A stretch of 64,000 bases of DNA from Planctomycetota bacterium (GCA_036479435.1 JAZGFI010000103.1:33955-97954), one strand, 5' to 3'. Shown: positions 2,853 to 60,697, numbered from the stretch's first letter. Translations and numbers: made by a program. The notes: generated by a model from the sequence alone, not told the origin.

Positions 2853-2940
2853 GGGGGGGGGGCTTTCGAATATTTACTCAAGCACTGAACCTAAGCTAAC
2901 CGAAAGGACGAGGTGTGGTGAAACGCAGGGAGCGCACATC

Positions 2941-3762
2941 GTGAAAGCCGTGTCGGTCGCGTTGGCAGTCTGGGTCCTATTCGGCTCACTGCTGGCGGCA
3001 CAATCTGAGCCAAGCCCCACGAAGGGTAAAACTAGGGGGCTCAGCGTCGCGGATATCGAGGCGCTGTTACAAGTTGGCGTCTCGGATCTAGACTTGATCA
3101 AGCTCGGCGACCGTCGCGGCTGGCCCTCTAAGTTGCGGCAAGCCGATCTGATGCGGCTCGACCGGGTGGGCGCCCAAAGACGACTCCGCGAACGCCTCCT
3201 GGCCCGCTTGGAACTAGGCTCCAAGCGCGGTCAACGCTTGAAGACTCTGCGGCCCTACGATGGCCGATTCACCAATGCTCGCAGGCAAGAGCAGCGCTAC
3301 GCCTTATTGGTGCCGCAGGGGTTTGAGTTCCGCTCGAGCCAAGGTGGACGGCGCTTAGAGATCATTGGGTCGGGTTCGGCGGATTGGTTTTCAAGGCGCA
3401 GCTACTTCCTTTGGATTTTGGACCGGAAGACATGGCGGCCATCCGATGCGCTAGCTCTGAGTAAAGTTGTCGCCGATTCGGCGCTGGCACGTATGAAGCG
3501 CGGCGGATTGAAGCTGAGCCCGCTCGAATTCTCCTACCTCACGGACCCCGAAACCCGAACTCGCTACCCGCACTATGATGCCCTCGGTCGCGATCCTGAG
3601 ACGGATCGTGGCGGCGTTTTCGCCCTCGCGCTGAAGATCCCAGCTGATGGCGACTATTTCGCGGTGATGGGCTACACCAGCCCCACGAAGATCGCAGGAC
3701 AAGATGAAAGCGATGACCCGGCGACTATCCTCAGCCTGATGCTCGGTTCCCTTAAGCTCTAG
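2941..3762 (+). CDS. secreted hypothetical protein
   Basis: The ORF frame is open from 2755. A GTG at 2941 is preceded by AGGGAG (2927-2932) and followed by a signal-peptide-like KAVSVALAVWVLFGSLLAAQS. Starting at 2755 would overlap the convergent btpA-like gene. No recognisable domain. Confidence 0.4.
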   Translation: MKAVSVALAVWVLFGSLLAAQSEPSPTKGKTRGLSVADIEALLQVGVSDLDLIKLGDRRGWPSKLRQADLMRLDRVGAQRRLRERLLARLELGSKRGQRLKTLRPYDGRFTNARRQEQRYALLVPQGFEFRSSQGGRRLEIIGSGSADWFSRRSYFLWILDRKTWRPSDALALSKVVADSALARMKRGGLKLSPLEFSYLTDPETRTRYPHYDALGRDPETDRGGVFALALKIPADGDYFAVMGYTSPTKIAGQDESDDPATILSLMLGSLKL

Positions 3763-9674: not shown

Positions 9675-10931
9675 CTACTCGATGACGACCCGAGTGCCGT
9701 TAGTCGCGACCCAATCTTCAGCGAGGGCCGTCGGCGAACTGTAGAGCACGCCAGCCGCGTAGAAGGTCATCCCGACCAAGAACGGCGCGTTGGGGAGCAG
9801 CATTCCAAATACTGCGAGCCCATCGGCGTTTAGGTTGCCATTAAATTCCGCGAAGGCTAGTGGGCGCGGAAAAGTGATGGATAGATTGAAAAGGGCATCT
9901 GAATCGAGTGGGAGGACCTGCATGGTGCCGGGAATGAGGATTCCACTGTTTGCGGTGCTGGCGATGGCCATGGCAAATTGCCAGTTAGGTTGCGCAGGTG
10001 CGTTGAGACGCCATTCTACTCGAGCCCCGACTTCGGCCGGGGTTACTTGACGCAGAAGGCGTTCGATCGCGATGCGGTGGATCTCTCCGGTGTTGACGGT
10101 AACAAGGACGCTTTTCCCACCGACGTCGATGGCGATATCCTCGGCGCCGCTACCGTCACCGAGCGCCGACGCGATGACTTCAATTTGGCCCGTGTTCGCG
10201 TTAATTTTGGTGACGTCGCCGTTGTAGATGGTGGAAGCGAGGATGACTCCTGATTCGGTGGCGACAATATCGCTAACGAGAAAACAATTGTTGGCGACGG
10301 ATACGGCGGTATCGGCGATGGGGTCGTACTCGTAGATGGAGGTCAGTCCCAAAGCACCGATGTAGAGCTTGCCATTCATGCCGTCGGCGACGTCCGTGGC
10401 GCCGGGAATTCCCGATGCCAAGAGTAGGCGGCTGACTTCGATGCCGTTGACTAGCTCGACGCGCCAAAGATCGGTGCCACCGGTGAAGAAATTACTCGAG
10501 GTCAAATCCGCCACGTACATCGATCCACTTTGATCAAAAATGACATCGATGGGGATGAAGTAACCCAGGCTCGAGGTGGTCAGCAGCCCGGTCACAAAAT
10601 CATAGCGCACGATAGTGTGGGTAATGGAGTCGCCGATGTAGAGCGCGCCATCGGGTCCAAGTTCCATCGACAAGGCCAACAGCGGCTGTGTTGAGAGCGG
10701 GGTCCAAACGGCGGTGGTACTGTTGGGGTCGTAGATACCAACTTCTTGGATGTCCACCCGCGAGAGAATAATTTCACCGTTCGGCCCGATGACGATGTCA
10801 TCCACGGTGTCCGGCAAGACTCCGACCAAGGGCTGATAATCGGAGATGTCGAGGCTCTGGGCCAAGGCCACTGGCATACACATCGCGGCGCCTATTATCA
10901 GGGCCGCGATCAAGATGGATCGGTCAAGCAT
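9675..10931 (-). CDS. secreted NHL/beta-propeller repeat protein
   Basis: Start taken at the internal ATG giving MLDRSILIAALIIGAAMCMPVALAQS (signal peptide). Repeated YIGD/YVAD beta-propeller blade motifs. Confidence 0.5.
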   Translation of the reverse strand: MLDRSILIAALIIGAAMCMPVALAQSLDISDYQPLVGVLPDTVDDIVIGPNGEIILSRVDIQEVGIYDPNSTTAVWTPLSTQPLLALSMELGPDGALYIGDSITHTIVRYDFVTGLLTTSSLGYFIPIDVIFDQSGSMYVADLTSSNFFTGGTDLWRVELVNGIEVSRLLLASGIPGATDVADGMNGKLYIGALGLTSIYEYDPIADTAVSVANNCFLVSDIVATESGVILASTIYNGDVTKINANTGQIEVIASALGDGSGAEDIAIDVGGKSVLVTVNTGEIHRIAIERLLRQVTPAEVGARVEWRLNAPAQPNWQFAMAIASTANSGILIPGTMQVLPLDSDALFNLSITFPRPLAFAEFNGNLNADGLAVFGMLLPNAPFLVGMTFYAAGVLYSSPTALAEDWVATNGTRVVIE

Positions 10932-11058
10932 GCGGTCTACTCTGGTAACGTTGAAGGGCGAGCATAGCAGTCCCCAGCTGCCGGTTCCTATCAGAATTCG
11001 GTTTAGAGATCGCCAATAGCCCCAATCGTGGTCCGGAATCGACAGAATCATCGTTGAG

Positions 11059-13239
11059 CTAAGGACTTGGCTCGCTTTTCCATACTTGGGGTTTCAGGCC
11101 CTGTAGCCAGGATCTTAGGCATCCATGGCGGTGTGCATAATCGTTCGCCCCTACCGCCAGGGCCAAGGCCCGAGGATCACCGACAATGACCAAAAGGCGT
11201 TTCGCGCGCGTGACGGCGGTATAGAGAACGGGTCTTTTGAGCAGCAGGAAGTGCTGATTATAGACCGGCAAGATCACCGCTGGGAACTCTCCGCCCTGGG
11301 ATTTGTGCACCGTCATCGCCCAGGCGGGCGCGATGTCCGAAAGGCTCGATCGGCCGTATTCTTGGCGAGCGTTGCCGAAGCGCGCCATGAGTTGCCCCCG
11401 CGCCAGGTCAATCGACTCAACTCGCCCCAAGTCTCCATTGAACAACTCGCGGTCGTAGTCGTTTCGGCGCTGCATGATCCGGTCGCCTCGGGCAAACCTA
11501 AGATCCCCGTGTTCCAAGAATTCCGCATGAGGATCACGGGCCTGTTGCACGGAACGATTCAGTTCCAGAGTGCCGACGGGACCTTTGTGCATCGGGCTGA
11601 GAATTTGAACGTCACCAGGCCCAGATTGGTCGAGACGTCGAGGGACTTCTTCCAGCAAAAGTCGCGTGACAATCTCGGCGCCTCGCCTCGGGTCTTTCTC
11701 CTCGATGAACAACAAATCCGCGCCGTCGTCGGCAAGATCTGGTATTCGTCCGGCCAAGATCTCGTGCGCGACTCGAATGATGCGACTGCCCTGAGCTTGT
11801 CGAAACACCCGGGTGAGGCGGAGGACGGGGACGACTCCCGCGGCAATGACGTCTCTGAGGACCGTCCCCGGACCGACGGATGGAAGTTGTTCCGCGTCGC
11901 CCACCAACAACAGGCGTGCGCCCTCGGGAAGGGCCCTCAGCAGGTGTAAGAACAGTGGAAGATCTAGCATCGATGTTTCGTCGATGACGATGATGTCCGC
12001 AGCGAGCGGATAGTCCGTACCGTGAGCAAAACGACCGTGGCCACCGTCAAACTTCAACAGACGATGAATGGTGGTCGCCTCCAAGCCGGATACCTGTTCC
12101 AGTCTCTTGGCGGCGCGACCGGTGGGGCAGGCCAAGGCGATGCGGAGGCCGCGGTCGCGCCAGATGCGTACGAGACTGCGAAGGACCGTCGTCTTGCCGA
12201 CGCCAGGACCACCGGTCAACACGGCGACCTTAGATTGCAAGATTCCTCGAATGGCCTCTGATTGCTCGCTCGACAGTTCGGCCTGGATCGCCTTCGACGC
12301 TTGCGTTGGCAGCCTTGGGCCTAGGGGGTCGCTCGAATTGAGGTGGGTTGAGAGTCTTTGCGCCGCCTCGGTCTCGGCATCAAAAGCGAAGGCGTCATAG
12401 ACATTGTAGTCGCGTTCCGGAGAGTCTCGCGCGATGACGATTTTTCGCGTTGCGACCAGTTCTTTGAGCTGCTGGCGCAGCGGAGCTTGATCGACCTCGA
12501 GTAAGTCTGCCGCTCGCTCGAGCAAGACCGGTCCCGGCAGACAGATGTGACCTTGCACCAAAGCTTCGTCGAGAGCGTGGCTGAGGCCGGCATTGAGCCG
12601 CGAGGGGGCATCCGCGGCGGTGCCCTGAGCCCTGGCGACGCGATCTGCCAATCGAAATCCGACACCCGATACTTTCTCGGCGAGGAGGTAGGGATTGTGC
12701 TGCACCCGTCCCAGGCCGTCGTCGCCGAGGGCATCGGCGGCCCGCAAGGCCAAAGCGGGCCCCAGGCCGTGTCCCTGGAGAAAGATCAAAAGTTCGCGGC
12801 GTTCGCGCTCGCTACGCCAAGTGGTGGCGATGGTGTCGGCGCGCCTTTTTCCAATTCCCTCGACTTCGGTCAGCCGCACGGGTTCGTCGTCCAAAACTTC
12901 GAGGGTCTTGTCGCCGAAGGCTTTGACGAGTCGCCGCGCGAGCTCGGGTCCGATGCCCTCAACGCGAGGCCCCGCCAAGTACTTTTCAATACCGATGAGA
13001 GTTTGCGGGGTCAGGCGTAGGGCGCTTTGGGCTTTGAAACGGGAGCCAAACTTGGGATGCTCCTCGAAGATTCCGTGGAGCCGAAGCTCGTCGTTTTCAA
13101 ACAGATCTCCGGTAATGCCGACAACGGTAAGCTCGCCACCGCGGGCAGGCCGAAACGAAAACACGGAGAATCCCGTGTCTTCGTTGGCAAAGATGACGCG
13201 CTTGACGCGCCCTTCAATGAGTTGGAGATCATCGTTCAC
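11059..13239 (-). CDS. recD2: RecD2-like ATP-dependent DNA helicase (RecD/TraA superfamily 1)
   Basis: 726 aa. N-terminal RecD2-type region (VIFANEDTGFSVF), helix-hairpin-helix segment, Walker A LTGGPGVGKTT, Walker B/DEAD-like region, C-terminal SH3-like region. Typical length for RecD2. Confidence 0.85.
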   Translation of the reverse strand: MNDDLQLIEGRVKRVIFANEDTGFSVFSFRPARGGELTVVGITGDLFENDELRLHGIFEEHPKFGSRFKAQSALRLTPQTLIGIEKYLAGPRVEGIGPELARRLVKAFGDKTLEVLDDEPVRLTEVEGIGKRRADTIATTWRSERERRELLIFLQGHGLGPALALRAADALGDDGLGRVQHNPYLLAEKVSGVGFRLADRVARAQGTAADAPSRLNAGLSHALDEALVQGHICLPGPVLLERAADLLEVDQAPLRQQLKELVATRKIVIARDSPERDYNVYDAFAFDAETEAAQRLSTHLNSSDPLGPRLPTQASKAIQAELSSEQSEAIRGILQSKVAVLTGGPGVGKTTVLRSLVRIWRDRGLRIALACPTGRAAKRLEQVSGLEATTIHRLLKFDGGHGRFAHGTDYPLAADIIVIDETSMLDLPLFLHLLRALPEGARLLLVGDAEQLPSVGPGTVLRDVIAAGVVPVLRLTRVFRQAQGSRIIRVAHEILAGRIPDLADDGADLLFIEEKDPRRGAEIVTRLLLEEVPRRLDQSGPGDVQILSPMHKGPVGTLELNRSVQQARDPHAEFLEHGDLRFARGDRIMQRRNDYDRELFNGDLGRVESIDLARGQLMARFGNARQEYGRSSLSDIAPAWAMTVHKSQGGEFPAVILPVYNQHFLLLKRPVLYTAVTRAKRLLVIVGDPRALALAVGANDYAHRHGCLRSWLQGLKPQVWKSEPSP

Positions 13240-13259
13240 GGGCCCAGGATACTCGATCC

Positions 13260-13402
13260 GGTGCCAGGCACCACGCCGTCACTCTGTGGTGCCTGGCACG
13301 GAAAAGTGACGGCGGGGTGCCTGGCACGGAAAAGTGACGGCGGGGTGCCTGGCACCGCCTAGGGTGCCTGGCACCGCCTAGTCACTCTGGGGTGCCGGGC
13401 AT
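13260..13402. repeat. tandem array of palindromic GGTGCC(T/A)GGCACC units (28-bp unit x2, 19-bp unit x2, flanking degenerate copies)
   Basis: Seen directly: ggtgccaggcacc (13260-13272); ggtgcctggcacggaaaagtgacggcgg x2 (13288-13315 and 13316-13343); ggtgcctggcaccgcctag x2 (13344-13362 and 13363-13381); ggtgccgggcat (13391-13402). Lies in the divergent intergenic region between recD2 and the GT1 gene. Confidence 0.85.
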
Positions 13403-13424: not shown

Positions 13425-14582
13425 TTGTCAGATTCGCTTCGAATTCTTCGGGTCATCACGCGTCTTAATGTCGGCGGGCCTTCGCGTCATGTGGTGCAGC
13501 TCATGCAGGGGCTGGAGTCGAATCGTTTCGAGCAGACTCTGGTTGCGGGTGAACTCAGCGAAGGCGAGGCGGAACTGCCTGACGCTAGGGCTTTGAAGCC
13601 GAGGTATTGCCGGGAACTTGCGCGCCGCGTGAGCCCTCAAAAAGACCGCCGCGCCTACCTTGAACTGAGGGGCATCATTGCCGAGCTGAAGCCGCACATC
13701 GTGCACACCCATCAAGCCAAGGCCGGATTGTTGGCGCGTTTGGCGGCGAAGCACGAGGCGGGGCCTAAGCTGGTCCATACCTACCACGGTCATACTTTTC
13801 AGGGTTACTGGAATCCGATTTTCGGGCGCCTCGTGCGAGGCCTTGAACGGCGGCTCGGCATGATGTCAGATGCCCTGATCGCGCAGTCAGAGTCTCAACG
13901 CGAAGAGCTTCGTCAACACTTGGGGGCTCGAGTCGCGGATCGGATTCGGATCATCAAGCCCGGAGTGAACTTCGACTTGTTCGAGGGAACAAGAGTTGGA
14001 ACACGGTCCTCAGAGACGATCTCAATTGGATTCGTCGGACGGCTTGCCACCGTCAAGAATGTGCCGGACTTCTTGGCAACGCTAAAGCAGCTCCAAGACC
14101 ATCATTCACTTTCCTTCAAAGCGAAGATCATCGGCGACGGTGCGGCATCGCTTCGAGAGCGACTTGAAGAACAAGCGCGAGCGCTGGGGGTGGCGGAAAA
14201 GATCGAATGGAAGGGTAATTGCAAGGACATGGCAAAAACCTATCGGGAGCTCGACGTCGTGGTCATGACCAGCCGCAATGAGGGGACCCCATTGGCCGCG
14301 ATTGAGGCGCTTTATTGCGGTTGCCGTTTCCTGTCCTACGACGTTGGGGGGATTCGTGACACGGTGGGAGATTTAAGCGGCGTGACATTGGTGCCGCCGC
14401 GAGACTTCAAACAACTGGCGGAAGCTCTGGTCAAGGTCGTTGCAAAGGGAGGACCCTGCGTTGATCTCGAATTGGAAAATCTGCAGCGGGAACTGAGTCA
14501 GCGATTTGGAAGCGCACGCCTAACGGCCGAGATTGCCGAGCTCTACGAAGACATCACCCGCGCGTCGCCGACGCGCTCTTAG
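13425..14582 (+). CDS. glycosyltransferase family 1 (GT-B, GT4-like)
   Basis: Begins LRILRVITRLNVGGP, typical of GT4 enzymes. C-terminal EGTPLAAIEALYCG(C) E-x7-E region. Start chosen at in-frame TTG 13425, 5 nt after GGAGAGGGGAG. ATG 13392 is possible but lacks an RBS. Confidence 0.75.
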   Translation: MSDSLRILRVITRLNVGGPSRHVVQLMQGLESNRFEQTLVAGELSEGEAELPDARALKPRYCRELARRVSPQKDRRAYLELRGIIAELKPHIVHTHQAKAGLLARLAAKHEAGPKLVHTYHGHTFQGYWNPIFGRLVRGLERRLGMMSDALIAQSESQREELRQHLGARVADRIRIIKPGVNFDLFEGTRVGTRSSETISIGFVGRLATVKNVPDFLATLKQLQDHHSLSFKAKIIGDGAASLRERLEEQARALGVAEKIEWKGNCKDMAKTYRELDVVVMTSRNEGTPLAAIEALYCGCRFLSYDVGGIRDTVGDLSGVTLVPPRDFKQLAEALVKVVAKGGPCVDLELENLQRELSQRFGSARLTAEIAELYEDITRASPTRS

Positions 14583-14977
14583 TCGTCGCAGCGAAGGCGA
14601 TCCGCGATGAAATTGCGGATGCTGTTCTGAGCTTCTTCGTCTTTCCAGCCAATCCACCAAAACTCGACGCCTATCTCGTAGCCGCCTTTTTCTTGGGCGT
14701 CGCACCAGGAGACTTTGCCCATTGAAATGACCTCCATCGGGAAGCCCGGAAGCTGCAATTCCAATGCCAGCATTTGGCCTTCTGCGACGGCCGCTGGAGC
14801 TTCAAAACTGATACCACCGCCGGAGATGTTGTTGAGGGCCGCGGCATGCTTGGTCTTGAGATCGTCAAATCGCCCGTCGGCGTCCTCGACGGGCCGGAAG
14901 GTCATTTCACAGTTGGCGCTCACTCGCGGAAACCCGCGGTTTTCCATGAGGGCGGGTTTTTGCTTGTCGTTCTTCAT
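14579..14977 (-). CDS. PilZ-domain protein (putative c-di-GMP receptor)
   Basis: RGFPRV (RxxxR) plus NNISGGGISF (D/NxSxxG) PilZ signature motifs. 132 aa. End overlaps the GT1 stop by 4 nt. Confidence 0.7.
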   Translation of the reverse strand: MKNDKQKPALMENRGFPRVSANCEMTFRPVEDADGRFDDLKTKHAAALNNISGGGISFEAPAAVAEGQMLALELQLPGFPMEVISMGKVSWCDAQEKGGYEIGVEFWWIGWKDEEAQNSIRNFIADRLRCDD

Positions 14978-15106
14978 GACGCGCCGATCTCCCTGGTCCA
15001 GCTCGGGCTTTATCGACTCATTTGAGGTCGATCTTGACTGTAATCGCTAACAGCCCCAGCGCGGATGAATCAGACATTGCGACACAAGTTGTTTCAGATC
15101 AATGTC

Positions 15107-22623: not shown

Positions 22624-23693
22624 GGTGCCTCCCTCAGTTTCTTCAAGGCCAAGCTGATCTGCTCGGCGGTGCTTCGGTAAAGATCAACGTCGCCGCCAAA
22701 GGGATCGATGATGTCGGCCCTAGGGTCAAGGGGGCGGATGCGGTCGGCGAAATCCGGGAATTCATGCGCGAGGATTTCTGCGTGGTGTGCGGTCATCGTC
22801 AAGATGCGATCCATGCGCCGGAGAAGGTCACCGCTGATCGGTCGCGAGCGGTGTCCCCTCAAAGACAGACCGCGCTCTTCCGCCACGATCTGTGCGGCCT
22901 CAGACGCGGGTGTTCCCGCCCAAGCTGAAATGCCCGCCGAAAAGATTCGAATGGCGGGCGCTTCGTCGCCCTCAGTGCCGCCTTCCTGCTCGATCTGCTG
23001 CCTCAAAATGGCCTCAGCCATCGGGCTGCGGCAGGTGTTTCCGGTACAAACCAAGAGGATGCGCTCGGCCAGTTCTTCGGCGACCGTTGTGGCCTCGATG
23101 GCACCTTCTCGCAACACCTCGAAACTGCCATTTTCGAACACGCGGACTACGGTGGAGGGAACGCCTCCGAGCGGTCGGTCGTACTCGACAATAAGATTGA
23201 CGCGGTCGCCGAAAGCCTCGTTGATTGCCTGTGCCGTCGTGAAGTCGGGGCGACCGCTCACGTTGGCACTGGTACCGACGATGGAAAAAGGGGCGCGGCG
23301 AGCGAGCGCCGGCGTGAAAGCGTCAGAGGGGCAACGGAGACCAACGGTCCCTCCGCCGCGGTTGTCGACGACGAGCGTTATGGCACCCGGCCATAGGGCT
23401 CGCGCAAGCCGTTCGGCCGCAGGGGCTAACTCGCCACCAGCGGCGGCGCGGGCCTGGACCAGGTTGCACACGTAGCGGGCCAAGGGCTTGCGCTCGCTGC
23501 GTTGCTTCAGGGCGTAGAGAGCTTTTGTCGCTTCGGGATCGTCGCCGCGGATTCCCAATCCATAGACCGTTTCGGTGGGGAAGGCCAAAATCCCGCCGTC
23601 TTGAAGGCACTCGATGGCCCGTGCCAGAATCGGCTCCAAATTGGCCGCATCAAATTTCAGAATCTCGGTCATGATTTTTGAGGTTATCAGCAT
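22620..23693 (-). CDS. tsaC: fusion protein: YrdC/TsaC-type threonylcarbamoyl-AMP synthase domain plus low-molecular-weight protein (Tyr/Arg) phosphatase domain
   Basis: N-terminal half carries PTETVYGLG and TSANVSGRP (YrdC/Sua5 fold). C-terminal half carries ILLVCTGNTCRSPMAEAI (CX5R P-loop) and a DP loop (IIDPFGG), as in LMW-PTP/YwlE. The stop overlaps the rpiB start (ATGA). Confidence 0.75.
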   Translation of the reverse strand: MLITSKIMTEILKFDAANLEPILARAIECLQDGGILAFPTETVYGLGIRGDDPEATKALYALKQRSERKPLARYVCNLVQARAAAGGELAPAAERLARALWPGAITLVVDNRGGGTVGLRCPSDAFTPALARRAPFSIVGTSANVSGRPDFTTAQAINEAFGDRVNLIVEYDRPLGGVPSTVVRVFENGSFEVLREGAIEATTVAEELAERILLVCTGNTCRSPMAEAILRQQIEQEGGTEGDEAPAIRIFSAGISAWAGTPASEAAQIVAEERGLSLRGHRSRPISGDLLRRMDRILTMTAHHAEILAHEFPDFADRIRPLDPRADIIDPFGGDVDLYRSTAEQISLALKKLREAP

Positions 23694-23794
23694 CCGAGGA
23701 CCGGTGCGGACTTTTGACCAAATCCACGGAGCGTGTTAACAGGCGGGTAGGATCATGGCCCCGCAAGGGCCACCGCCTCTTGAGAGCGCAGGGA

Positions 23795-24541
23795 ATGTCC
23801 GAGCACCAATCCAAAGAACGATTGCAACAACTTAGCGCACTTGTGGGCGGGCTCGCCCACGAGATCAAAAACCCCTTGTCGACGATTAACATCAACCTTG
23901 AGCTGTTGCGCGAGGACTGGCATCACGACGGCGGGCCGCTGGCTAGTCGTTCGATTCGTAAAATCGACGTCTTACTGCAAGAATCGAGGCGCTTGGAGGG
24001 GATGCTGACAGAATTCATCAGACTAACTTCGACCGCCGAGCTCGACCCGAGCATCGTGGATATCAATGTCCTCTTGGAGGACGTCCTCGATTTTACGGCG
24101 GCCGAATGTCGGAATCGCAATATCCAGATCACCAGCCAGCTGGACCGCTCGCTCCCGCGCGTTGAGTTGGACCCCAACTTGATCCGCCAGGTGGTCTTGA
24201 ATCTCCTCAAAAACTCCTTCGAGGCCATGGAAGAGCGTGGCGGCACGATCACCGTCAACACCAGGCGCAAGGCGGCGGGGAGTGACTCGGAACTTAGGGT
24301 TGTGATCGAGGTTATTGACAACGGCTCCGGCATCACCCCGGAATCCCAAAAGCGGGTCTTTCAGGCTTACTTTTCTACCAAAGCCGAGGGAACTGGATTG
24401 GGTCTTCCCTCGGTACAAAAGATCGTCGAACGGCACGGCGGTCGCATTAGCTGTGAGAGCGCTCCCGGTTTGGGAACTCGCTTCGTGGTCGAGCTCCCAG
24501 CCAGGCAACCGTCAGCACCAGCACCTGACGAGGGACCCTGA
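23795..24541 (+). CDS. soluble sensor histidine kinase (HisKA + HATPase_c)
   Basis: H-box LVGGLAHEIKNPLSTI. N, G1 (DNGSGI) and G2 (GTGLGL) boxes. No TM segment. Start at ATG 23795; the longer frame would run into the divergent gene. Confidence 0.8.
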   Translation: MSEHQSKERLQQLSALVGGLAHEIKNPLSTININLELLREDWHHDGGPLASRSIRKIDVLLQESRRLEGMLTEFIRLTSTAELDPSIVDINVLLEDVLDFTAAECRNRNIQITSQLDRSLPRVELDPNLIRQVVLNLLKNSFEAMEERGGTITVNTRRKAAGSDSELRVVIEVIDNGSGITPESQKRVFQAYFSTKAEGTGLGLPSVQKIVERHGGRISCESAPGLGTRFVVELPARQPSAPAPDEGP

Positions 24542-24546
24542 ACGTC

Positions 24547-25932
24547 ATGGAACGTGATATCAAGGTTCTGGTCATCGATGACGAGGCTAACCACGCCCAA
24601 GCCACCGCCGAGATTCTTGAACGCATGGGCTACGACGTCGCGGTGGCGACCTCGGGCAAAAACGGTCTCAAAACGATCGCGGCGGATGTCTTTGATCTCA
24701 TCGTCACTGATGTCGTCATGGGCGAAATTGGCGGCTTGGACATCCTCCAGGCGGCTAAGGCCAAGAACGCTGCAACCGAGGTCATCTTGGTGTCGGGTCA
24801 AGGTAGCGTTGGCATGGCGCTAGAGTCCATTCAGCTCGGTGCGGCGAACTACCTCACAAAGCCGCTGAAAGTCGACGAGGTCCGCACTGAAGTTAGAGAA
24901 GTCGTTCGCCGGATTAGGGACCGGCGGCGAGGGAATGTGCCGAAGGCCATTCCCGTCGCGGTCGAACGTATTCCGTCCGAAGAGTACGGCGATTTTCACG
25001 AGTTCATCGGCCGTTCCGCCGCTCAGCTGCAAGTCTTCGAGATGATCCGCAAGGTCGCTCCCACGTCGGCGACGGTCTTGGTTACAGGACCGAACGGGTC
25101 CGGCAAGGAGCTCGTCGCCCGGGCGATTCACCGCCTGAGTCCACGCCACGCCAATCCCTTCGTCGCCTTGAATTGCGGCGCCATGGCCGAAAACATTCTC
25201 GAGAGCGAACTGTTCGGTCACGTTCGGGGCGCTTTCACCGGGGCCACCGCGAACCGTGAAGGTCGTTTTCAGTACGCCGACAAGGGCACCCTGTTTCTCG
25301 ATGAGATTGGCGACACCTCGCTTTCGTTCCAAGTCAAACTATTACGGGTCATCCAAGAGCGAGAAGTGACGCCGGTTGGTTCCAATGCCACGCGTCAGGT
25401 CGATGTCCGAATTATCACGGCAACTAACCGTGACTTGGCGGAAGAAGTCCGCCGGGGCAACTTTCGCGAGGATCTCTACTACCGCTTGAAAGTCGTGCAT
25501 ATCCAAACCCCTCCGCTCAAACATCGCCGAGAAGATATCCCCGCCTTAGTTCAGCATTTCATCACAGAAGCCAACGCGAGCTTCGGCAAGCAGGTAAGCG
25601 GAATCCAAAAAGTCGCGCTCCAACAACTCATCAACTACGACTGGCCCGGCAACGTCAGACAACTGAAAAACACCGTCGAAACAATGGTGGTATTGGGCTC
25701 AACGACGGAGCTAGGAACGGAAGACATCCCCTCGGACGTCGTGGGGACCGCGACCCCCGGTCAGGCGCTCGCACCGCTGGAGATCTTTGAGCAGTTGACG
25801 CTTTCGGGCATCGAAGAGTTCATGATCCGTCACCACCTAAAAAAGTTCGACGGGAGCCGCGCCAAGGTCGCCGAAGCCCTGGGGATCTCAGAGCGGACCC
25901 TCTACCGCAAGCTCAAAGAGTACGGCGTCTAG
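24547..25932 (+). CDS. sigma-54-dependent response regulator (NtrC family: REC + AAA+ + Fis-type HTH)
   Basis: REC domain with the phospho-acceptor Asp in LIVTDVVM. Walker [15 protein letters not shown] motif, Walker B LFLDEIGD, Arg-finger region. C-terminal HTH ([25 protein letters not shown]). Confidence 0.9.
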
Positions 25933-39683: not shown

Positions 39684-41033
39684 TTGAAAGTCCTCATCGC
39701 AGACGACGAGAAGAGCATCGTGATGACCCTCGAGGATGACCTCGAGGAGGCGGGTTACGAAGTTTTATCCTGCCCCGATGGTTTACGTGCGCTCGACCTG
39801 ATCAAGCGCGAGTCGGTGGACTGTCTCATCTCCGACCTCAACATGCCGGGCCTAAACGGCATGGACTTGCTCGCCGAAGCCAAAAAGATCTCGCCGAACC
39901 TTCAAGTGATTGTCATCACGGGGTACGCCACGATCGAAAGCGCGGTCAAGGCCATCAAGTTGGGCGCGGCGGACTACATCCAAAAGCCCTTTTTGAACGA
40001 ACAGATCCTCGCGATGCTCGCGAAGATGAAAAAGATCGTCCGTCTTGAACGCGAGAACGCCGTTTTACGAGAACAGCTGGACGACGTTCATGCGGTCGGC
40101 AATATCGTCGGCAAAAGCAAGGCGATGCAAGACGTCATCCGCACGGTGAAGACCGTCGCGAAAACGGACTCCAACATCTTGATTGTCGGTGAAACGGGCA
40201 CCGGAAAGGAAGTCATCGCCCGGGCGATTCACAACCTGAGCATGCGAAAAGGGAAGCTCATGGTCGCCCTGTCCTGTGCGGCTATTCCCTCAAACCTTTT
40301 GGAAGACGAGTTGTTCGGTCACGAAAAGGGTGCGTTTACCGATGCTCGTGACCGCAAAATCGGACGATTTGAACGCGCTGACGGGGGATCATTCTTCCTC
40401 GATGATATCGATGACATGCCGCTCGAGACTCAGGTCAAGCTGCTGAGGATTCTTCAGGAACGGGAATTTGAACGCCTTGGCGGCGAGGAGACGATCAAGG
40501 TTGATGTCCGGGTTGTCGCGGCGAGCAAGGTCGATCTTCGCGAGCTCGTAAGAGCGGGCAAGTTCCGCGAGGATTTGTTCTATCGCCTCAATGTCGTGCC
40601 GGTCTTGCTACCGCCGCTTCGAGATCGCGATGGCGATGTGCCCTTGTTGGCGTCTTATTTCATGAAGAAATTCTCGACCGAACGGGAATACGAGATCAAG
40701 CCCGAAGTGATGGCGGCGATGGAAGCCTATTATTGGCCGGGCAATGTCCGCGAACTCGAGCATGCGATTGAACGCGCCATCGCTTTTGCAGGAAGCGGAC
40801 ATGTGCTCAAAAAAGAGCACCTCGTCGAATCGTCTCCGGTCCACAAAAAGGCACTCGCCGTGCCGACCCACTTAACAACCTTGCGAGAGTTCGTCGAGGA
40901 AGCCGAGATGCAGCACATTCGCAACATCCTCAAGACGACCAACGGCCACAAGGCCCAGGCGGCAGGAGTTCTCGGCATCAGCCGCAAGAACTTGTGGGAA
41001 AAGATGCGGCACTATGACATCGAGCAGGACTAA
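39684..41033 (+). CDS. sigma-54-dependent response regulator (NtrC family) with a variant GAFTDA loop
   Basis: TTG start. REC with the phospho-acceptor Asp in LISDLNMPG. Walker A GETGTGKE. GAFTDA in place of the canonical GAFTGA. C-terminal HTH (AQAAGVLGISRKNLWEKM). Confidence 0.88.
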   Translation: MKVLIADDEKSIVMTLEDDLEEAGYEVLSCPDGLRALDLIKRESVDCLISDLNMPGLNGMDLLAEAKKISPNLQVIVITGYATIESAVKAIKLGAADYIQKPFLNEQILAMLAKMKKIVRLERENAVLREQLDDVHAVGNIVGKSKAMQDVIRTVKTVAKTDSNILIVGETGTGKEVIARAIHNLSMRKGKLMVALSCAAIPSNLLEDELFGHEKGAFTDARDRKIGRFERADGGSFFLDDIDDMPLETQVKLLRILQEREFERLGGEETIKVDVRVVAASKVDLRELVRAGKFREDLFYRLNVVPVLLPPLRDRDGDVPLLASYFMKKFSTEREYEIKPEVMAAMEAYYWPGNVRELEHAIERAIAFAGSGHVLKKEHLVESSPVHKKALAVPTHLTTLREFVEEAEMQHIRNILKTTNGHKAQAAGVLGISRKNLWEKMRHYDIEQD

Positions 41034-55255: not shown

Positions 55256-55658
55256 CGGGGTTGGAGCCACGAAGAAGCCCCCTGTTGTACGGCCTGGCTC
55301 GGCCGCGATAAAGGCCCTGAGCTTTCGGGGTTCGGGCCCGTGCGGGGATTTCCGGCCCACTCGCTTGCCCCCCTGTCGTTACCTGGAGGGAACGTGTTTC
55401 GGTTTCGTAACAGGTTTGAATCCATGATTGGGGCCTATCATCGAGTCCTCGGCCTTGGCATTAAAGGTTGATGTGCCTTAACCAACGCCATTTCAACAGG
55501 TTAGGATGATGTAATTCGAATTCAGTCATTTGGCCCTATCCATCATTCTGGCATCTCCTTTGCTTTAGTTAACCGGAAAGACGCTCGATCCCCGGCTGGT
55601 TTGCCATGCCGATCGCGACGTTTTGCCAAGCAGTCCATAGAGACACAGGAGACAGGCA

Positions 55659-57608
55659 ATGAAGAAACTAGTATACCTTTCCTCCTTCATGGGGACTTTT
55701 CTGCTAGTGGCGAGCCTCGCGTTCGCTCACGGCGGTAATTACACCGGACCTGGCGGTACGGGATCCGGCGGCGGATTCTCACCTTCAGGTGGTGGTACTC
55801 CCGGCCCGGGTCCTGGACCCGGCGGTGGTGGTACGACCGGTGGCGGTTCTAACGGCGGCGGCGCGACCGGCCCTGGCGGCGGTCTTCCCGGTGGTCCGAC
55901 CGGACCTGGCGGCGGTGGCGGCGGCGGAAATGCTGGCGGACCTGGCGGCGGACTCGGTGGTGGCGGCGGTTCGACGCCCGGCGCTCGCAAGGCCGCCAGT
56001 GACGCGAACGTCACTTGGGCCGCTTGGTGGTTCTTCAACGATGATCGCTTCTTGAACCTCAAGGCGAAAGTTCGCGCCGACGAAGCGCAAACCGAAAACG
56101 CCGACTTGTTCCTGGGTGAAGACACCTCCGATGCCGGTAGCAACCGAATGCCCGCGAAGAAAATTCGCGAAGGTGTGTTGCCGGTTCTGCGCCTCGCGTT
56201 GAAGGACTCCTTCTACGACACGCGCGCTGCGGCCGTGATTGCCCTCGGCAAATGTGGCATGGGCGATGACCTCGCTGAAATCAAGTCTGTCCTCAACGAC
56301 CGTGACAAACGTGTCCGCGAATCGGCAGCGTTGGCGATGGGGATCCTTGGCGACAAGGAAGCCATCCCGACCCTCATCGAGATCATGAACAACACCAAGT
56401 CTGCGCGGAAATTGCTTCGCAAGGGCGGTGAAATTCTTCCCCGTACTCGTTCGTTCGCGGCTATCGCCATTGGTTTGATCGGTCGTCGTACCGACATCTC
56501 CGATACCGAAGGAACGCGCGCCCTCATCAAGCTCATGAACGACAAGAGAGCCACCAAGGCGCAAGTCGACCTCGCGGTCGGACCGATCGCCGCTCTCGGA
56601 ATCATGAAGTCGAAGGAAGCCATTCCCGAGCTCGTCAAGTACTTGAAGAACTCCAACAACCGCACCGTGGCCCGCTCGTTTGCAGCGACCTCGCTCGGCA
56701 AGATTGGTGATCGTTCGGCTCTTGAGCCGCTGTTGAAGTGCTTGAAGGACAAGCAGAACGCGATCGTTCAGTCCTCGACCATGGCTTTGGGTCAAATCCT
56801 TGAGCCCTCTGACACCAAAGAAGTGAAGCGCGTGAAGAAGCTCGTCTCGACGAGTGCTGACCTTTCGGTCAAGAACTTCGCGATCATGTCACTCGCTCAA
56901 ATCGGTGGCGACGAAAACCGTCAGTTCATCACGAGACTCGTGACCAAGGGTAAGGCTTTGCAAAAGCCCTTCGCTTCGCTCGCGGTCGGCGTGTTCTACT
57001 ACAACAACCCCGATTTCCTTCACCGGGAATCTGCGGCCAAGATCATCCACAAGGAGTTCAAGAGCACCAAGAACCCCTCGGATCTCGGCGCGCATGCGAT
57101 CGCTTTGGGTCTCATGAAGTACGACGCCGCTGGCGCCGACATTCTGAAGATCCTCAACAAGGGTGGCCAGGCTTCGCTTCGTCAGCACCTTGCGATCTCA
57201 CTCGGCCTCATGGACTACCGCGATTCCATCAAGGACATCCGGGAGATCGTGAAGGAAAAGGGTGATGTTGACTTGCGACGGAACTCCGCCATTGCTCTCG
57301 GTCTCCTCGGCGACCGTGGTGCCATGAAGTTCCTCAGCGAAGAAATCGCGAAGTCCTCGAACACGCAGCCGGTTCTCGGCGCCGTGACTCGTGGCCTCGG
57401 ATTCATCGGTGATGCGAGTGCGGTTCCGTTGTTGACGAAGATGGTCAAGGATTCGAAGAAGTTCAAGGACAACACGCGCGCCTTCTCGGCCGTGGCCTTG
57501 GGCTTGCTGGGCGACAAAGATCCCCTGCCCTTCACCGCCTCCATCTCTGAGAACAACAACTACATCCAGCGGACCGATGCGATCCGCGAAGTCCTGACGA
57601 TTCTCTAA
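55659..57608 (+). CDS. secreted HEAT-repeat (PBS-lyase-type) protein with Gly/Pro-rich N-terminal region, paralogue 1
   Basis: Signal peptide MKKLVYLSSFMGTFLLVASLAFA with the predicted cleavage site directly before HGGNY. An ~85-aa Gly/Pro tract, a conserved WAAWWFFNDDRFLNLKAK block, then >12 repeats of DxxVRxxAAxALGxxGD. Confidence 0.7.
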   Translation: MKKLVYLSSFMGTFLLVASLAFAHGGNYTGPGGTGSGGGFSPSGGGTPGPGPGPGGGGTTGGGSNGGGATGPGGGLPGGPTGPGGGGGGGNAGGPGGGLGGGGGSTPGARKAASDANVTWAAWWFFNDDRFLNLKAKVRADEAQTENADLFLGEDTSDAGSNRMPAKKIREGVLPVLRLALKDSFYDTRAAAVIALGKCGMGDDLAEIKSVLNDRDKRVRESAALAMGILGDKEAIPTLIEIMNNTKSARKLLRKGGEILPRTRSFAAIAIGLIGRRTDISDTEGTRALIKLMNDKRATKAQVDLAVGPIAALGIMKSKEAIPELVKYLKNSNNRTVARSFAATSLGKIGDRSALEPLLKCLKDKQNAIVQSSTMALGQILEPSDTKEVKRVKKLVSTSADLSVKNFAIMSLAQIGGDENRQFITRLVTKGKALQKPFASLAVGVFYYNNPDFLHRESAAKIIHKEFKSTKNPSDLGAHAIALGLMKYDAAGADILKILNKGGQASLRQHLAISLGLMDYRDSIKDIREIVKEKGDVDLRRNSAIALGLLGDRGAMKFLSEEIAKSSNTQPVLGAVTRGLGFIGDASAVPLLTKMVKDSKKFKDNTRAFSAVALGLLGDKDPLPFTASISENNNYIQRTDAIREVLTIL

Positions 57609-57668: not shown

Positions 57669-58148
57669 CTCGCCCCAAGCCGCGGAGACGCTCAGCCTCG
57701 CGCCAATTGTGAACGCTGCGCTCGCCGTTGGCGTATCTTACGACACCGTTCCCGATTTCGATCTTGGTAAGCAAACCGCCGAGCGTCGCCTCAACGTGTT
57801 CAAAGAAACCTGTGATCCCTCAAGACGCGATGCGATCGGCGAACTCCTGAAGATTCTCTGATTCGCATCCTATCGGCGAGGGCTCTTCGCGCTGGCCTTA
57901 GTGCTAAGGGAAGGAAGCGTTACGGCGGAGTCACGCCGTTACCAACAAATCCCATTGCCGATGAACGGGGCTTTGCGCAGCTGGACGTTCAACGGCCTCC
58001 AAAGGCCTCTGCTTGCCGATAGGGCGCTCCGTGCGCCTTCTGGCACCCTCTTTGCATTTGCTTGGTAGACACGCTCGATCCCCCAGCCGGATTGCTCCGC
58101 CGATCGTGACCTTCTGCCATGTGGTCCCAGTGACCCCGGAGAAACGCC

Positions 58149-60083
58149 ATGAAACATCTCATCTATCTAACTTCGTTCTTGGGAGCCTTGCTCCTAGCCA
58201 CCAGCCTGGTCTTTGCGCACGGCGGGAATTACACCGGTCCCGGCGGCACCGGCAGCAGCGGTGGCTTTTCACCATCGGGCGGCGGTACGCCCGGACCTGG
58301 GCCGGCTCCGGGAGGAGGCTCCACTCCTGGCGGCGGAGGAAACGGTGGTGGAGCCACTCCCCGCGGCAGCGGGTTGCCTGGAGGCCCCCCGGGTCCTGGA
58401 GGCGGCCTACCCGGTGGCGGGGGCTTTGGCGGTGGCCCTGGAAACGCCACGGGCGGCGGCAAGAAAAAGCCCTCTGACTCCAACACCACCTGGGCCGCTT
58501 GGTGGTTCTTCAACGACGATCGTTTCTTGAACCTCAAGGCCAAGATCCGGGCCGAGCGCGCCACGACCGATATCGACGATGCCTTCATGGGATCGGACAC
58601 GTCTGATTTGGGTCACAACAAACTCTCCGCTCGCAAGATTCGCGACGGTGTTCTTCCCGTGCTGCGCTTAGCGCTCAAAGACGGCCACTACGATACTCGT
58701 GCAGCCGCCGTCATCGCCTTAGGTAAGGCCGGAATGCCCGACGATCTGGCGGAGATTAAGACGCTCCTCGGCGACCGCGACAAGCGCGTGCGCGAGTCAT
58801 CGGCCTTGGCACTCGGCATCTTGGGCAACAAAAAAGCCCTACCCGAACTCATCGCCATCATGAACAACACAGCGTGGGCCCGAAAAGAACTGCGTCAAGG
58901 AGGCGAAGTTCTGCCGCGCACGCGCGCCTTCGCCGCCATGGCCTTGGGACTGATCGGTGGTCGTACGGACATTTCTGACACCGCCGCTTTCACCGCCCTC
59001 GTTCAACTCATGAACGACAAGCACACCACAAAGGCCCAGATCGATCTCACTGTGGGGCCCATCGTTGCGCTCGGGATCATGAACGACAAAGCCGCCGTAC
59101 CTGAGCTCGTACGCTACCTTGAAAATCGTGAAAACCGCACCACCGCCCGCGCCTACGCTGCCATTTCGCTCGGGAAACTCGGCGACCGTTCCGCGACGGC
59201 TTCCTTGCTCCGCGCTCTCAAGGCCAAGCACGGCGCCATCGTCGAATCCGCCGCGATCGCTTTGGGACAGATCCTTGAACCTAGCGACAAAAAGGCGGTC
59301 AAGCGCCTGCGTCGACTGGTTGCAAGCTCTCCCATTCAGTCGGTGCGCAACTTCGCCATCATGTCCTTGGGTCAAATCGGCGGTGAAGAGAACCGTCAAT
59401 TCCTCACCACTACCGTCACTCGCGGCAAAGCCCTCCAACGTCCTTTCGCCTCGATGGCACTCGGCGTCTTTTACTACAACCACCCGCACTACGATCATCG
59501 CAAGGCAACCGGCATTCTGCTTCATGGCGAATTCAAAGCCACCAAGAACCCCTCTGAACTCGGCGCACATGCGATTGCCCTGGGGCTGATGCAGTTTGAC
59601 ACCGCTGGTGCCGACATTCTGAAGACCCTAAACAAGGGCGGCCAGGCCTCGATGCGCCAACACCTAGCGATCTCTTTGGGGCTCATGAGCTACCAAGACG
59701 CCATCCCGGACATCCGTACCCTCGTGGAGGAAAAGGGCGATGTTGACTTGCGACGCAATGCTGCGATCGCCCTCGGTCTGCTCGGCGACCGCGGTGCGAT
59801 GAGTTTCCTAAGTGAGCAAATCGCCGACTCTGCGAATTCGCAGGCGGTCCTCGGGGCCGTGACGCGAGGCCTCGGCTTCATCGGCGATGCCAGTGCTGTC
59901 CCGCTTCTGACTGAAATGGTTCGCGACGCCAAAAAGTACAAGGACAACACACGCGCCTTTTCGGCCGTTGCCTTGGGGCTCTTGGGCGACAAAGACCCGC
60001 TGCCTTTCACGACAGCCATCGCCGAGAACAACAACTACATCCAGCGCACGGACGCCATCCGCGAGCTCCTCACTATCCTTTAA
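58149..60083 (+). CDS. secreted HEAT-repeat (PBS-lyase-type) protein with Gly/Pro-rich N-terminal region, paralogue 2
   Basis: Collinear with paralogue 1 over the whole length (same signal peptide, HGGNYTGPGGTG start, WAAWWFFNDDRFLNLKAK block, identical C-terminal IQRTDAIRExLTIL). ~85 bp of upstream DNA is also conserved. Confidence 0.7.
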   Translation: MKHLIYLTSFLGALLLATSLVFAHGGNYTGPGGTGSSGGFSPSGGGTPGPGPAPGGGSTPGGGGNGGGATPRGSGLPGGPPGPGGGLPGGGGFGGGPGNATGGGKKKPSDSNTTWAAWWFFNDDRFLNLKAKIRAERATTDIDDAFMGSDTSDLGHNKLSARKIRDGVLPVLRLALKDGHYDTRAAAVIALGKAGMPDDLAEIKTLLGDRDKRVRESSALALGILGNKKALPELIAIMNNTAWARKELRQGGEVLPRTRAFAAMALGLIGGRTDISDTAAFTALVQLMNDKHTTKAQIDLTVGPIVALGIMNDKAAVPELVRYLENRENRTTARAYAAISLGKLGDRSATASLLRALKAKHGAIVESAAIALGQILEPSDKKAVKRLRRLVASSPIQSVRNFAIMSLGQIGGEENRQFLTTTVTRGKALQRPFASMALGVFYYNHPHYDHRKATGILLHGEFKATKNPSELGAHAIALGLMQFDTAGADILKTLNKGGQASMRQHLAISLGLMSYQDAIPDIRTLVEEKGDVDLRRNAAIALGLLGDRGAMSFLSEQIADSANSQAVLGAVTRGLGFIGDASAVPLLTEMVRDAKKYKDNTRAFSAVALGLLGDKDPLPFTTAIAENNNYIQRTDAIRELLTIL

Positions 60084-60163
60084 ACCCAAGCGGTGCCTAG
60101 CACCGCGACCTCATCAATCGGTGTTTAGCACCGCGCGTCACTTGCCTGTACCTGGCACTCAAT

Positions 60164-60187
60164 AGTGACGGCGTGGTGCCTGGCACC
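60164..60187. repeat. 24-nt element AGTGACGGCGTGGTGCCTGGCACC, identical (inverted) to 13260-13283; part of a cluster of GGTGCCTGGCACC-like palindromes at 60098-60187
   Basis: The reverse complement of 13260-13283 (ggtgccaggcaccacgccgtcact) equals 60164-60187 exactly. Degenerate copies: cggtgcctagcaccgcg (60098-60114), cggtgtttagcaccgcg (60119-60135), cctggcact (60150-60158). Confidence 0.8.
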
Positions 60188-60193
60188 CAATAA

Positions 60194-60697
60194 TCAGATT
60201 CGTCTTAGCCAAAAGGCCAAGGAGATGGCGATGAGGAGACCGGCGGTGAGGGCGATCCAGGAACGCTTTTGAAGACCGGCTGCAGAGTCGAGGTATTGCT
60301 CGGCATTTTTCGTTTGGGTGCGGTAGTGCTGGATAACGTCTTCGCGATCATCGAGAGAGGCGGCGCGCCGAAAGGCGTCGACGGCCGCGCGGTGATGGTT
60401 TTGCGAACCGAGAATGGCACCCTTCAATCCCCAGTTAAGGGATTGTTTGGCGTCGAGTTCAATGGCGCGTTCAGCACTTTTGAGAGCGGAATCGAGGTCG
60501 CCGAGATCGCGAAAAGCGGACGACAAAAAATGGTGACCCCAGGGATCGCGCGGAAATGTTTGCGTGTGAGTTCTGAGATTTTCGATGGGCCGAGAAGAAT
60601 TGGCGAAAATTTCCTGGGCGCGTAGGTAGTCCGAAGGCGAGGCGTCGTTTTGTACGCCAGCACTGAACAGAGCACAGACTAGGGCAAGGGAAAACAT
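60194..60697 (-). CDS. small secreted TPR-like repeat protein
   Basis: Signal peptide MFSLALVCALFSAGVQ. Helical-repeat composition with an ALKSAERAIELDAKQSLNWGLKGAIL TPR-like motif. Confidence 0.45.
   Translation of the reverse strand: MFSLALVCALFSAGVQNDASPSDYLRAQEIFANSSRPIENLRTHTQTFPRDPWGHHFLSSAFRDLGDLDSALKSAERAIELDAKQSLNWGLKGAILGSQNHHRAAVDAFRRAASLDDREDVIQHYRTQTKNAEQYLDSAAGLQKRSWIALTAGLLIAISLAFWLRRI

Follow-up and report, generated by a model that had tools for sequence, protein, structure and literature searches.

We identified two intergenic arrays of a short palindromic repeat in the window, by which we mean the whole stretch of Planctomycetota DNA analyzed here (64,000 nucleotides). Both arrays are likely to be BIME-like clusters of a REP/REPIN-like family that is mobilized in trans by a Y1 transposase of the RAYT/TIRYT type. 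The core of the repeat, GGTGCCWGGCACC, is a 13-nt perfect palindrome of the form 6-1-6, and the same core flanks genes for REP-associated Y1 transposases in other organisms. We regard the two loci as most likely non-autonomous mobile repeats rather than a gene switch. The window is part of a metagenome-assembled genome (ENA ERZ25083849, also at NCBI).

Two distant intergenic loci share a 24-nt repeat unit

A sequence-only reading of the window had placed four strings in the region from 60090 to 60193, and all four were found there: cggtgcctagcaccgcg (60091-60107), cggtgtttagcaccgcg (60119-60135), cctggcact (60151-60159), and the 24-mer agtgacggcgtggtgcctggcacc (60164-60187). As had also been claimed, this 24-mer (AGTGACGGCGTGGTGCCTGGCACC) is the exact reverse complement of positions 13260-13283, 47 kb apart, and both loci contain the composite TGGCAC-N5-AGTGACGGCG. 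We refer to the region around 13260 as locus 1 and to the region from 60090 to 60193 as locus 2. Near copies of the 24-mer occur at 13305-13328 (two mismatches) and 13333-13356 (one mismatch), and 100 dinucleotide-preserving shuffles of the window contained no match to it. When up to two mismatches were allowed, the 13-mer core (GGTGCCTGGCACC) had 14 strand-matches in the whole window, compared to 1.44 expected, and all of them were at the two loci. A looser core pattern gave only two extra matches in the window, both intragenic and probably due to chance.

Both clusters are extragenic and lie between open reading frames with Pfam support, which are divergent in one case and convergent in the other. 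Locus 1 fills the divergent region between a gene for a RecD2 helicase (11059-13239, minus strand) and a gene for a GT4 glycosyltransferase. Locus 2 is situated, as the sequence-only reading had described, between a HEAT-repeat gene (58149-60083, plus strand) and a convergent TPR gene (60194-60697, minus strand). The genes that flank locus 1 (RecD2 and GT4) are unrelated to those that flank locus 2 (HEAT and TPR). The similarity between the loci extends beyond the 24-mer; it includes 52 nt at 83% and comes to approximately 70 nt in all. No Rfam family matched anywhere in the window at the gathering score, and locus 1 showed neither a sigma-70-like promoter pattern nor a terminator pattern.

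Several other properties of the flanking genes were observed. The GT4 gene probably starts at a TTG codon at 13425, behind a strong ribosome-binding site (GGAGAGGGGAG). This start gives a protein of 385 amino acids, and its relatives have 383 and 386. The public gene call starts at approximately 13503 (359 amino acids) and is probably too far downstream. The HEAT-repeat genes at 55659-57608 and 58149-60083 are tandem paralogues, with 300 nt at 79% between 57054-57353 and 59529-59828. The repeat cluster is found only after the second paralogue, and the intergenic region after the first is without the core.

We compared locus 1 with the same region in related organisms. The closest relatives of the RecD2 protein among 5.8 billion proteins are only 54-58% identical. 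In the two closest relatives on long contigs (RecD2 54-56% identical), the gene order GT4, RecD2, hypothetical gene, ABC transporters is kept, and no core was found in their GT4/RecD2 intergenic regions (166 and 44 nt) or in the 22 kb around them. Because the syntenic region in these relatives is without the core, the locus 1 array represents an insertion specific to this lineage, not a conserved site of control. A Logan contig from the same organism (SRR10729170_11059, of which L149 positions 1-46 correspond to 13240-13285 of the window) stops 2 nt past the 24-mer, and this end is probably an assembly break due to the repeat. The readable part of the source genome comes to approximately 71 kb and contains two loci. 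Within it, 6.7 kb added to the window (L001) contributed no new locus, and a Logan contig at the left end extends the source sequence by about 1.2 kb.

Structure of the repeat unit and the composite

The repeat unit is a 24-mer (AGTGACGGCGKGGTGCCTGGCACC) that consists of an arm (AGTGACGGCG), one base, and the core. Both loci are regular arrays of cores with a period of approximately 28 nt; the cores start at 13260, 13288, 13316, 13344, 13363, and 13391 in locus 1 and at 60092, 60120, 60147, and 60175 in locus 2. The spacers, approximately 15 nt long, carry GTCAC or its complement GTGAC, so that units are present in both orientations. Each locus contains once a composite of approximately 70 nt, at 13260-13328 and, inverted, at 60120-60187. 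The composite has the order core, arm, linker, core, linker, arm, core; that is, two inverted units are placed around a third core. The composites of the two loci align over their full length with 55 of 78 columns invariant. The features of both arrays are as follows.

Locus 1
13260-13283, minus strand: REP unit, core GGTGCCWGGCACC with arm ACGCCGTCACT, 20 nt upstream of the RecD2 start codon
13288-13300, unstranded: central core GGTGCCTGGCACG, apex of the long hairpin formed from the two flanking inverted 24-mers
13305-13328, plus strand: REP unit (2 mismatches) that pairs in inverted orientation with 13260-13283, giving a REPIN-like doublet at 13260-13328 with 33-nt arms that are 85% complementary
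13333-13356, plus strand: REP unit with 1 mismatch, from a perfect 28-nt tandem duplication (13288-13355, 2.4 copies)
13363-13375, unstranded: further exact core, within a perfect 19-nt tandem duplication (13343-13381)
13380-13402, plus strand: degenerate terminal unit AGTCACTCTGG-GGTGCCGGGCAT, an arm-like GTCAC and a decayed core

Locus 2
60091-60107, unstranded: variant unit (TAGCACC subtype) CGGTGCCTAGCACCGCG, forming a 7-bp hairpin 7 nt past the HEAT stop codon
60119-60135, unstranded: another variant unit CGGTGTTTAGCACCGCG, 28 nt beyond the preceding one and the outer left core of the composite 60120-60187
60133-60142, plus strand: left arm GCGCGTCACT, complementary to the arm of the 24-mer (AGTGACGGCG)
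60148-60158, unstranded: decayed central core GTACCTGGCAC, apex of the locus 2 hairpin
60164-60187, plus strand: REP unit, exact copy of the 24-mer, ending 6 nt before the TPR stop codon

When folded as single-stranded DNA, the composite at locus 1 (13255-13332) forms one long hairpin of -36.8 kcal/mol (z -9.8). The composite at locus 2 (60116-60190) is more decayed, and its single-stranded fold has -20.9 kcal/mol (z -4.5). The units at 13260-13283 and 13305-13328 form an inverted pair with a gap of 21 nt, which is the arrangement of a REPIN or BIME. The perfect tandem duplications at locus 1 (28 nt in 2.4 copies; 19 nt in 2.1 copies) show recent local expansion. Locus 2 opens with two units of the variant subtype CGGTGNNTAGCACCGCG; with its three degenerate cores and one perfect unit, it looks older than locus 1. 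Of the hairpins in locus 2, only that at 60091-60107 has a T-rich tail, a weak one on the minus strand.

We also considered a CRISPR array, for which the criterion was repeats of 23-50 nt and unique spacers of similar length. This candidate was rejected, because the core has only 13 nt and the spacers of approximately 15 nt are repeated or inverted copies of each other.

The core in other genomes and metagenomes

A 22-base pattern of arm plus core had 11 single matches, in unrelated taxa, in the GTDB representative genomes scanned, a set from which the source genome is absent. Eight of these matches had G or C at the center, which is the chance expectation. Because the matches were scattered and chance-like, we conclude that the 24-mer is lineage-specific; no other genome is known to contain this 24-mer.

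JGI metagenomes, scanned for pairs of cores separated by 5-30 nt, yielded at least 120 contigs, and four viral contigs also matched this two-core pattern. Among the matches listed, the G+C content of the contigs, including the four viral ones, ranged from 35 to 79%. Two positions that were left free by the pattern were strongly biased among the same matches: the center base of the core was A or T in 320 of 383 cases, and the base after the core was C in 321 of 380. The periods and spacers of the listed arrays (17-42 nt) were specific to each contig, and the flanks often lengthened the palindrome, with 36-44% complementarity out to approximately 13 nt, compared to 27% in controls. No contig among the matches listed carried the arm sequence of the window beside the core, and none of them came from a close relative of the source organism. 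A blastn search of a plasmid collection with the array gave no significant match.

The core tended to recur on the contigs that carried it. Leaving out the cluster by which each contig was retrieved, we found 48 extra clusters in 624 kb of the metagenome contigs among the matches listed, where 2.3 cores were expected from base composition. On the core-bearing contigs among these matches, recurrence was approximately 20 times the prediction from base composition, with one extra cluster per 13 kb. Listed clusters were located within a spanning open frame in 42% of cases, compared to 70% of random segments, and on the listed contigs of low G+C content they occupied gaps between open reading frames of tandem, convergent, and divergent orientation. 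There was no significant enrichment of clusters at contig ends among the matches listed (19 observed and 14 expected, p 0.10).

Three of the viral contigs are a separate observation. In these IMG/VR contigs, two cores are 18 nt apart (L133 and L134) or 30 nt apart (L135), and a very large open reading frame common to them lies beside or over the match. These viral matches are possibly a coincidence within coding sequence and not a repeat element.

The core flanks genes for Y1 transposases

To describe the surroundings of the core, the open reading frames within 4 kb of it on the metagenome and viral contigs listed were clustered into families. Only one family among the matches listed was both recurrent and immediately adjacent to the core, a Y1 transposase found on six contigs at a distance of 0-54 nt. 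The adjacent proteins match the Pfam family Y1_Tnp (IS200-like). A second match, to NCBIfam NF047646 (REP-associated tyrosine transposase), spans all 146 positions of the profile; the scores are 80.6, 73.5, and 66.4 bits, one above and two below the curated cut-off of 80. The only relative with a solved structure is TnpA-REP of E. coli (4ER8). Among the matches listed, inverted cores are present on both sides of these six genes, which is the layout of a REPtron. For example, the gene on contig L053 has GTGCCTGGCAC-CAACCAACAC upstream and GTGTTGGTTG-GTGCCAGGCAC downstream.

The six core-linked transposases are only distantly related to each other, with pairwise identities of 30-39% (one pair excepted). 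The transposases of this analysis have approximately 270-335 amino acids and the motifs NH[FY]H, [WF][QE], and Y[IV]xxNP. Their C-terminal regions match HTH-type domains: in the L053 protein HTH_23 is matched below its Pfam cut-off, and precomputed matches include HTH_23, Sigma70_r4, and Bac_DnaA_C. Close members of the protein clusters carry the names Vicinamibacterales (Acidobacteriota), Methylomirabilota, and Acidobacteriota.

We then reversed the analysis, starting from five transposase homologues selected solely for their long contigs and therefore free of ascertainment by the core. An exact core was present on both flanks in three of the five (L140, L141, and L145). L140 and L141 have two to three exact cores upstream and one to two downstream, within 250 nt, and their loci are syntenic, as expected if a single-copy gene is inherited vertically. 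In L145, each side has a single exact core, inside a 27-nt inverted repeat. In L147 a core with one mismatch is present on both flanks, and L146 has terminal inverted repeats that begin with GTGCCAG. Terminal inverted repeats of 20-27 nt flank the genes in L145, L146, and L147. Among more distant homologues on plasmids (up to 38% identity), those of Legionella and Acetoanaerobium were inspected; other inverted repeats were found there, and the core was absent from both. The window itself contains no gene for a Y1 transposase.

Further observations concern these contigs. In L146 and L147, a stretch of 20 kb contains two or three Y1 genes, surrounded by toxin-antitoxin genes (HicAB, ParE, PIN, HepT/MNT), at the following positions.

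L146, Y1 genes: 2749-3756, 10001-11008, 14119-15060
L147, Y1 genes: 10001-10984, 12187-13182

The flanking inverted repeats in both contigs begin with GTGCCAG without the full palindrome. In the Vicinamibacterales-like contigs L140 and L141, a copy of the core (at 3397 and 1159, respectively) is found at the same 570-nt offset in an orthologous open reading frame of 336 amino acids and unknown function, and is thus a conserved intragenic copy. Most homologues of the core-linked transposases are on contigs of 1-2 kb, which is expected if the flanking repeats break short-read assemblies.

Comparison with REP, TIRtron, and MITE systems

The arrays share several properties with REP, REPIN, and BIME sequences and their RAYTs (Nunvar 2010, PMC2817692; Bertels and Rainey 2011, PMC3116915; structure of E. 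coli TnpA-REP 4ER8, PMC3479197). Both are short extragenic palindromes that occur in clusters with alternating orientation, and their inverted doublets fold into long hairpins. As in RAYT systems, the same sequence flanks, in other organisms, a single-copy Y1/HUH gene in inverted orientation, and the position of this gene is conserved in the syntenic loci L140 and L141. A REP is a 20-40-nt imperfect palindrome with a stem-loop, and the 24-mer is of this kind and contains the 13-nt palindrome.

There are also clear differences. A canonical REP has a GT[AG]G foot at the base of its hairpin, whereas the core arrays have no conserved foot. The positions outside the 13-mer are not conserved among the matches listed (position -2 is A in 121, C in 115, T in 80, and G in 64; position -3 is G in 45 of 380), and GTGG is present in only some units of the window. 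The conserved part is instead the apical 13-nt palindrome. REP sequences are normally lineage-specific, whereas the core is common to transposases that are 30-39% identical and to at least three phyla. The linked transposases, with about 270-335 amino acids and an HTH-type C-terminal tail, are longer than RAYTs.

Di Nocera 2013 (PMC3733652) described TIRtrons and their transposases (TIRYTs), in which flanking inverted repeats have a common GGGGWSAS; some families occur in dimers or clusters, and some are self-complementary. Most TIRYTs correspond to subclass 2.1 of TnpA-Y1 (Quentin 2018, PMC6006769) and to the Group 1 RAYTs (Bertels 2017, PMC5581495). For subclass 2.1, the published table gives the motifs NH[VYF]H, W[EQ]/FQ, and Y[IV]xLNP and a C-terminal HTH tail (PMC6006769). 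The linked transposases match this subclass in catalytic motifs, length, and a tail like HTH_23 or Bac_DnaA_C, and, judged from their motifs, they look like members of it. Quentin et al. found no REP-like sequences for subclass 2.1 by automatic or manual search (PMC6006769), and Bertels et al. reported that the 16-mers flanking Group 1 genes exceed those flanking housekeeping genes only modestly in frequency, with approximately 12 compared to approximately 5 occurrences per replicon (PMC5581495). The GGGGWSAS motif of TIRtrons was seen in the plasmid homologues of Legionella and Acetoanaerobium but not in the core elements.

The repeats also resemble MITEs in being small, non-coding, and repeated, with an inverted-repeat structure and presumed mobilization in trans. 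They differ in that the unit is far shorter (24 nt; approximately 70 nt for the composite) and in that the linked transposase is a Y1 single-strand enzyme instead of a DDE transposase. No target-site duplication was evident at either locus: CAAT flanks 60120-60187 on each side but occurs within this segment as well, and there is nothing comparable at locus 1. Y1 transposition is not expected to give target-site duplications.

A search of a library of papers for the core GGTGCCWGGCACC as a string found only unrelated primer and eukaryotic sequences, and it was not found in the Di Nocera supplements. The element behaves like a REP without having the canonical GT[AG]G foot, and it is best filed within the world of REP or terminal inverted repeats with Y1 transposases. 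Elements of this kind are known; what may be new is the conserved core, together with its link to a transposase subclass that was supposed to have no REPs.

A model for the origin of the arrays and its alternatives

We propose that a single-copy gene in another part of the genome would encode a HUH/Y1 tyrosine transposase (RAYT/TIRYT type) that mobilizes the repeats. In single-stranded DNA, the hairpins of the repeats would be recognized, cut, and rejoined by this transposase. Copies would land in extragenic DNA, by preference beside existing copies, and clusters would enlarge by tandem slippage and decay by point mutation. Effects on neighboring genes would be secondary. We infer mobilization in trans and a high copy number in the source genome; at two loci per 64-71 kb, several Mb of genome would contain of the order of 100 loci, which is only an extrapolation.

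REPs in E. coli have documented roles in mRNA 3'-end protection, in termination, and in the binding of nucleoid- or topoisomerase-type proteins. By analogy, it is plausible that the convergent HEAT and TPR transcripts would have structured 3' ends. Similarly, a plausible effect at locus 1 would be structured DNA or RNA in the divergent promoter region of RecD2 and GT4, strongly structured 20 nt upstream of the RecD2 start.

A broader proposal concerns the core itself. We suggest, tentatively and with slightly less than even confidence, that GGTGCCWGGCACC could be a deeply conserved cognate element of a large, phylum-spanning clade of Y1 transposases with HTH tails (subclass 2.1, Group 1 RAYT, or TIRYT-like). 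The core would then have seeded dispersed REP-like arrays in Acidobacteriota (Vicinamibacterales) and Methylomirabilota, the names attached to the linked transposases, and also in Planctomycetota, although these transposases are only about 30-39% identical. If so, REPs would in some cases have an identity that is not lineage-specific, and recognition would depend on the apical palindrome, which the HTH tail perhaps reads, instead of on a GTAG foot. That a single 13-nt palindrome is conserved across deep lineages of transposases and in at least three phyla may be unreported. The core would also provide a concrete candidate DNA substrate for a large and functionally uncharacterized subclass of transposases, and a simple sequence tag for spotting elements of this subclass in metagenomes. 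For annotation, the two intergenic arrays are to be read as repeat clusters and not as regulatory sites common to the neighboring genes. Such clusters would account for the break in the Logan assembly, and they fill almost the whole RecD2/GT4 promoter region.

The sequence-only reading had offered a REP/MITE-like family and a shared regulator site as alternatives. The repeat family stood up, since the core flanks REP-associated transposase genes elsewhere, the units form hairpins, and the clusters are extragenic and recur in core-bearing contigs; the regulator site fared badly, given the convergent setting of locus 2 and the absence of the site in relatives. If the core were an operator, a dimeric regulator, perhaps the HTH tail of a domesticated transposase-like protein, would bind the 13-bp palindrome in double-stranded form, and the arrays would control the adjacent genes. 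The perfect 6-1-6 dyad does have the shape typical of double-stranded sites for dimeric proteins, and among the matches listed the core is kept, with variable flanks, on contigs of 35-79% G+C. The array at locus 1 also fills a divergent promoter region, and the linked transposases have HTH-type domains at the C-terminus. We nevertheless consider an operator quite unlikely. Locus 2 lies between two convergent 3' ends and has no promoter to control, and the syntenic promoter region in two relatives is without the site. Among the matches listed, the transposase is the only gene family that recurs beside the arrays, and arrays on contigs of low G+C content are found in tandem, convergent, and divergent contexts alike. 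Sigma-54 promoter clusters, in which TGGCAC would be the -24 element, are a very remote prospect: TGGCAC is present on one strand of every core and two sigma-54 activators are encoded in the window, but none of the six window sites that match TGGCAC-N5-TTGCW with at most one mismatch is in the arrays. The position of the -12 element in the arrays reads AGTGA, and the consensus-fitting sites upstream of both HEAT genes differ from the repeat units.

Two other explanations address how the copies arose. The repeats could be structural elements kept by the host for their own function (mRNA 3'-end protection, termination, or nucleoid- or topoisomerase-type binding) and spread by recombination or slippage without a transposase. 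Stable hairpins, evident tandem slippage, one minus-strand hairpin with a weak T-rich tail, and the tight fit of locus 2, which starts 7 nt past one stop codon and ends 6 nt before another, all speak for such a function. As a separate origin it is improbable, however, because it leaves unexplained both the identical inverted copies 47 kb apart and the inverted cores around Y1 genes in unrelated organisms, and no classical terminator was found at locus 1. The structural roles fit best as secondary effects of mobile repeats and provide no alternative origin. The paralogous HEAT genes beside locus 2 (300 nt at 79%) raise the further idea that the shared sequence is a by-product of segmental duplication, or else a chance match between two local tandem repeats; we give this hardly any credence. 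A larger duplication of the flanking genes had been named earlier as a possible cause. Because the similarity ends at the repeats, after approximately 70 nt, and the flanking genes are unrelated, it is excluded, and the region after the first HEAT paralogue has no core. Chance is opposed by the complete lack of matches in the shuffled windows. Mobilization of REP-like repeats by a Y1 transposase remains the explanation that we prefer.

Sigma-54-related sequences elsewhere in the window

Independently of the arrays, we noted sequences related to sigma-54 near the HEAT-repeat genes. A perfect match to the sigma-54 promoter consensus (TGGCACCCTCTTTGCA, 58041-58056, plus strand) is located approximately 93 nt upstream of the second HEAT paralogue, and a match with one mismatch (TGGCATCTCCTTTGCT, 55549-55564, plus strand) approximately 95 nt upstream of the first. 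Judging from these sites, both HEAT paralogues may be sigma-54 dependent. Two response regulators that combine a sigma-54 interaction domain with a Fis-type HTH are encoded at 24547-25932 and 39684-41033 (both plus strand), and a histidine kinase gene (23678-24541) is present just upstream of the former.
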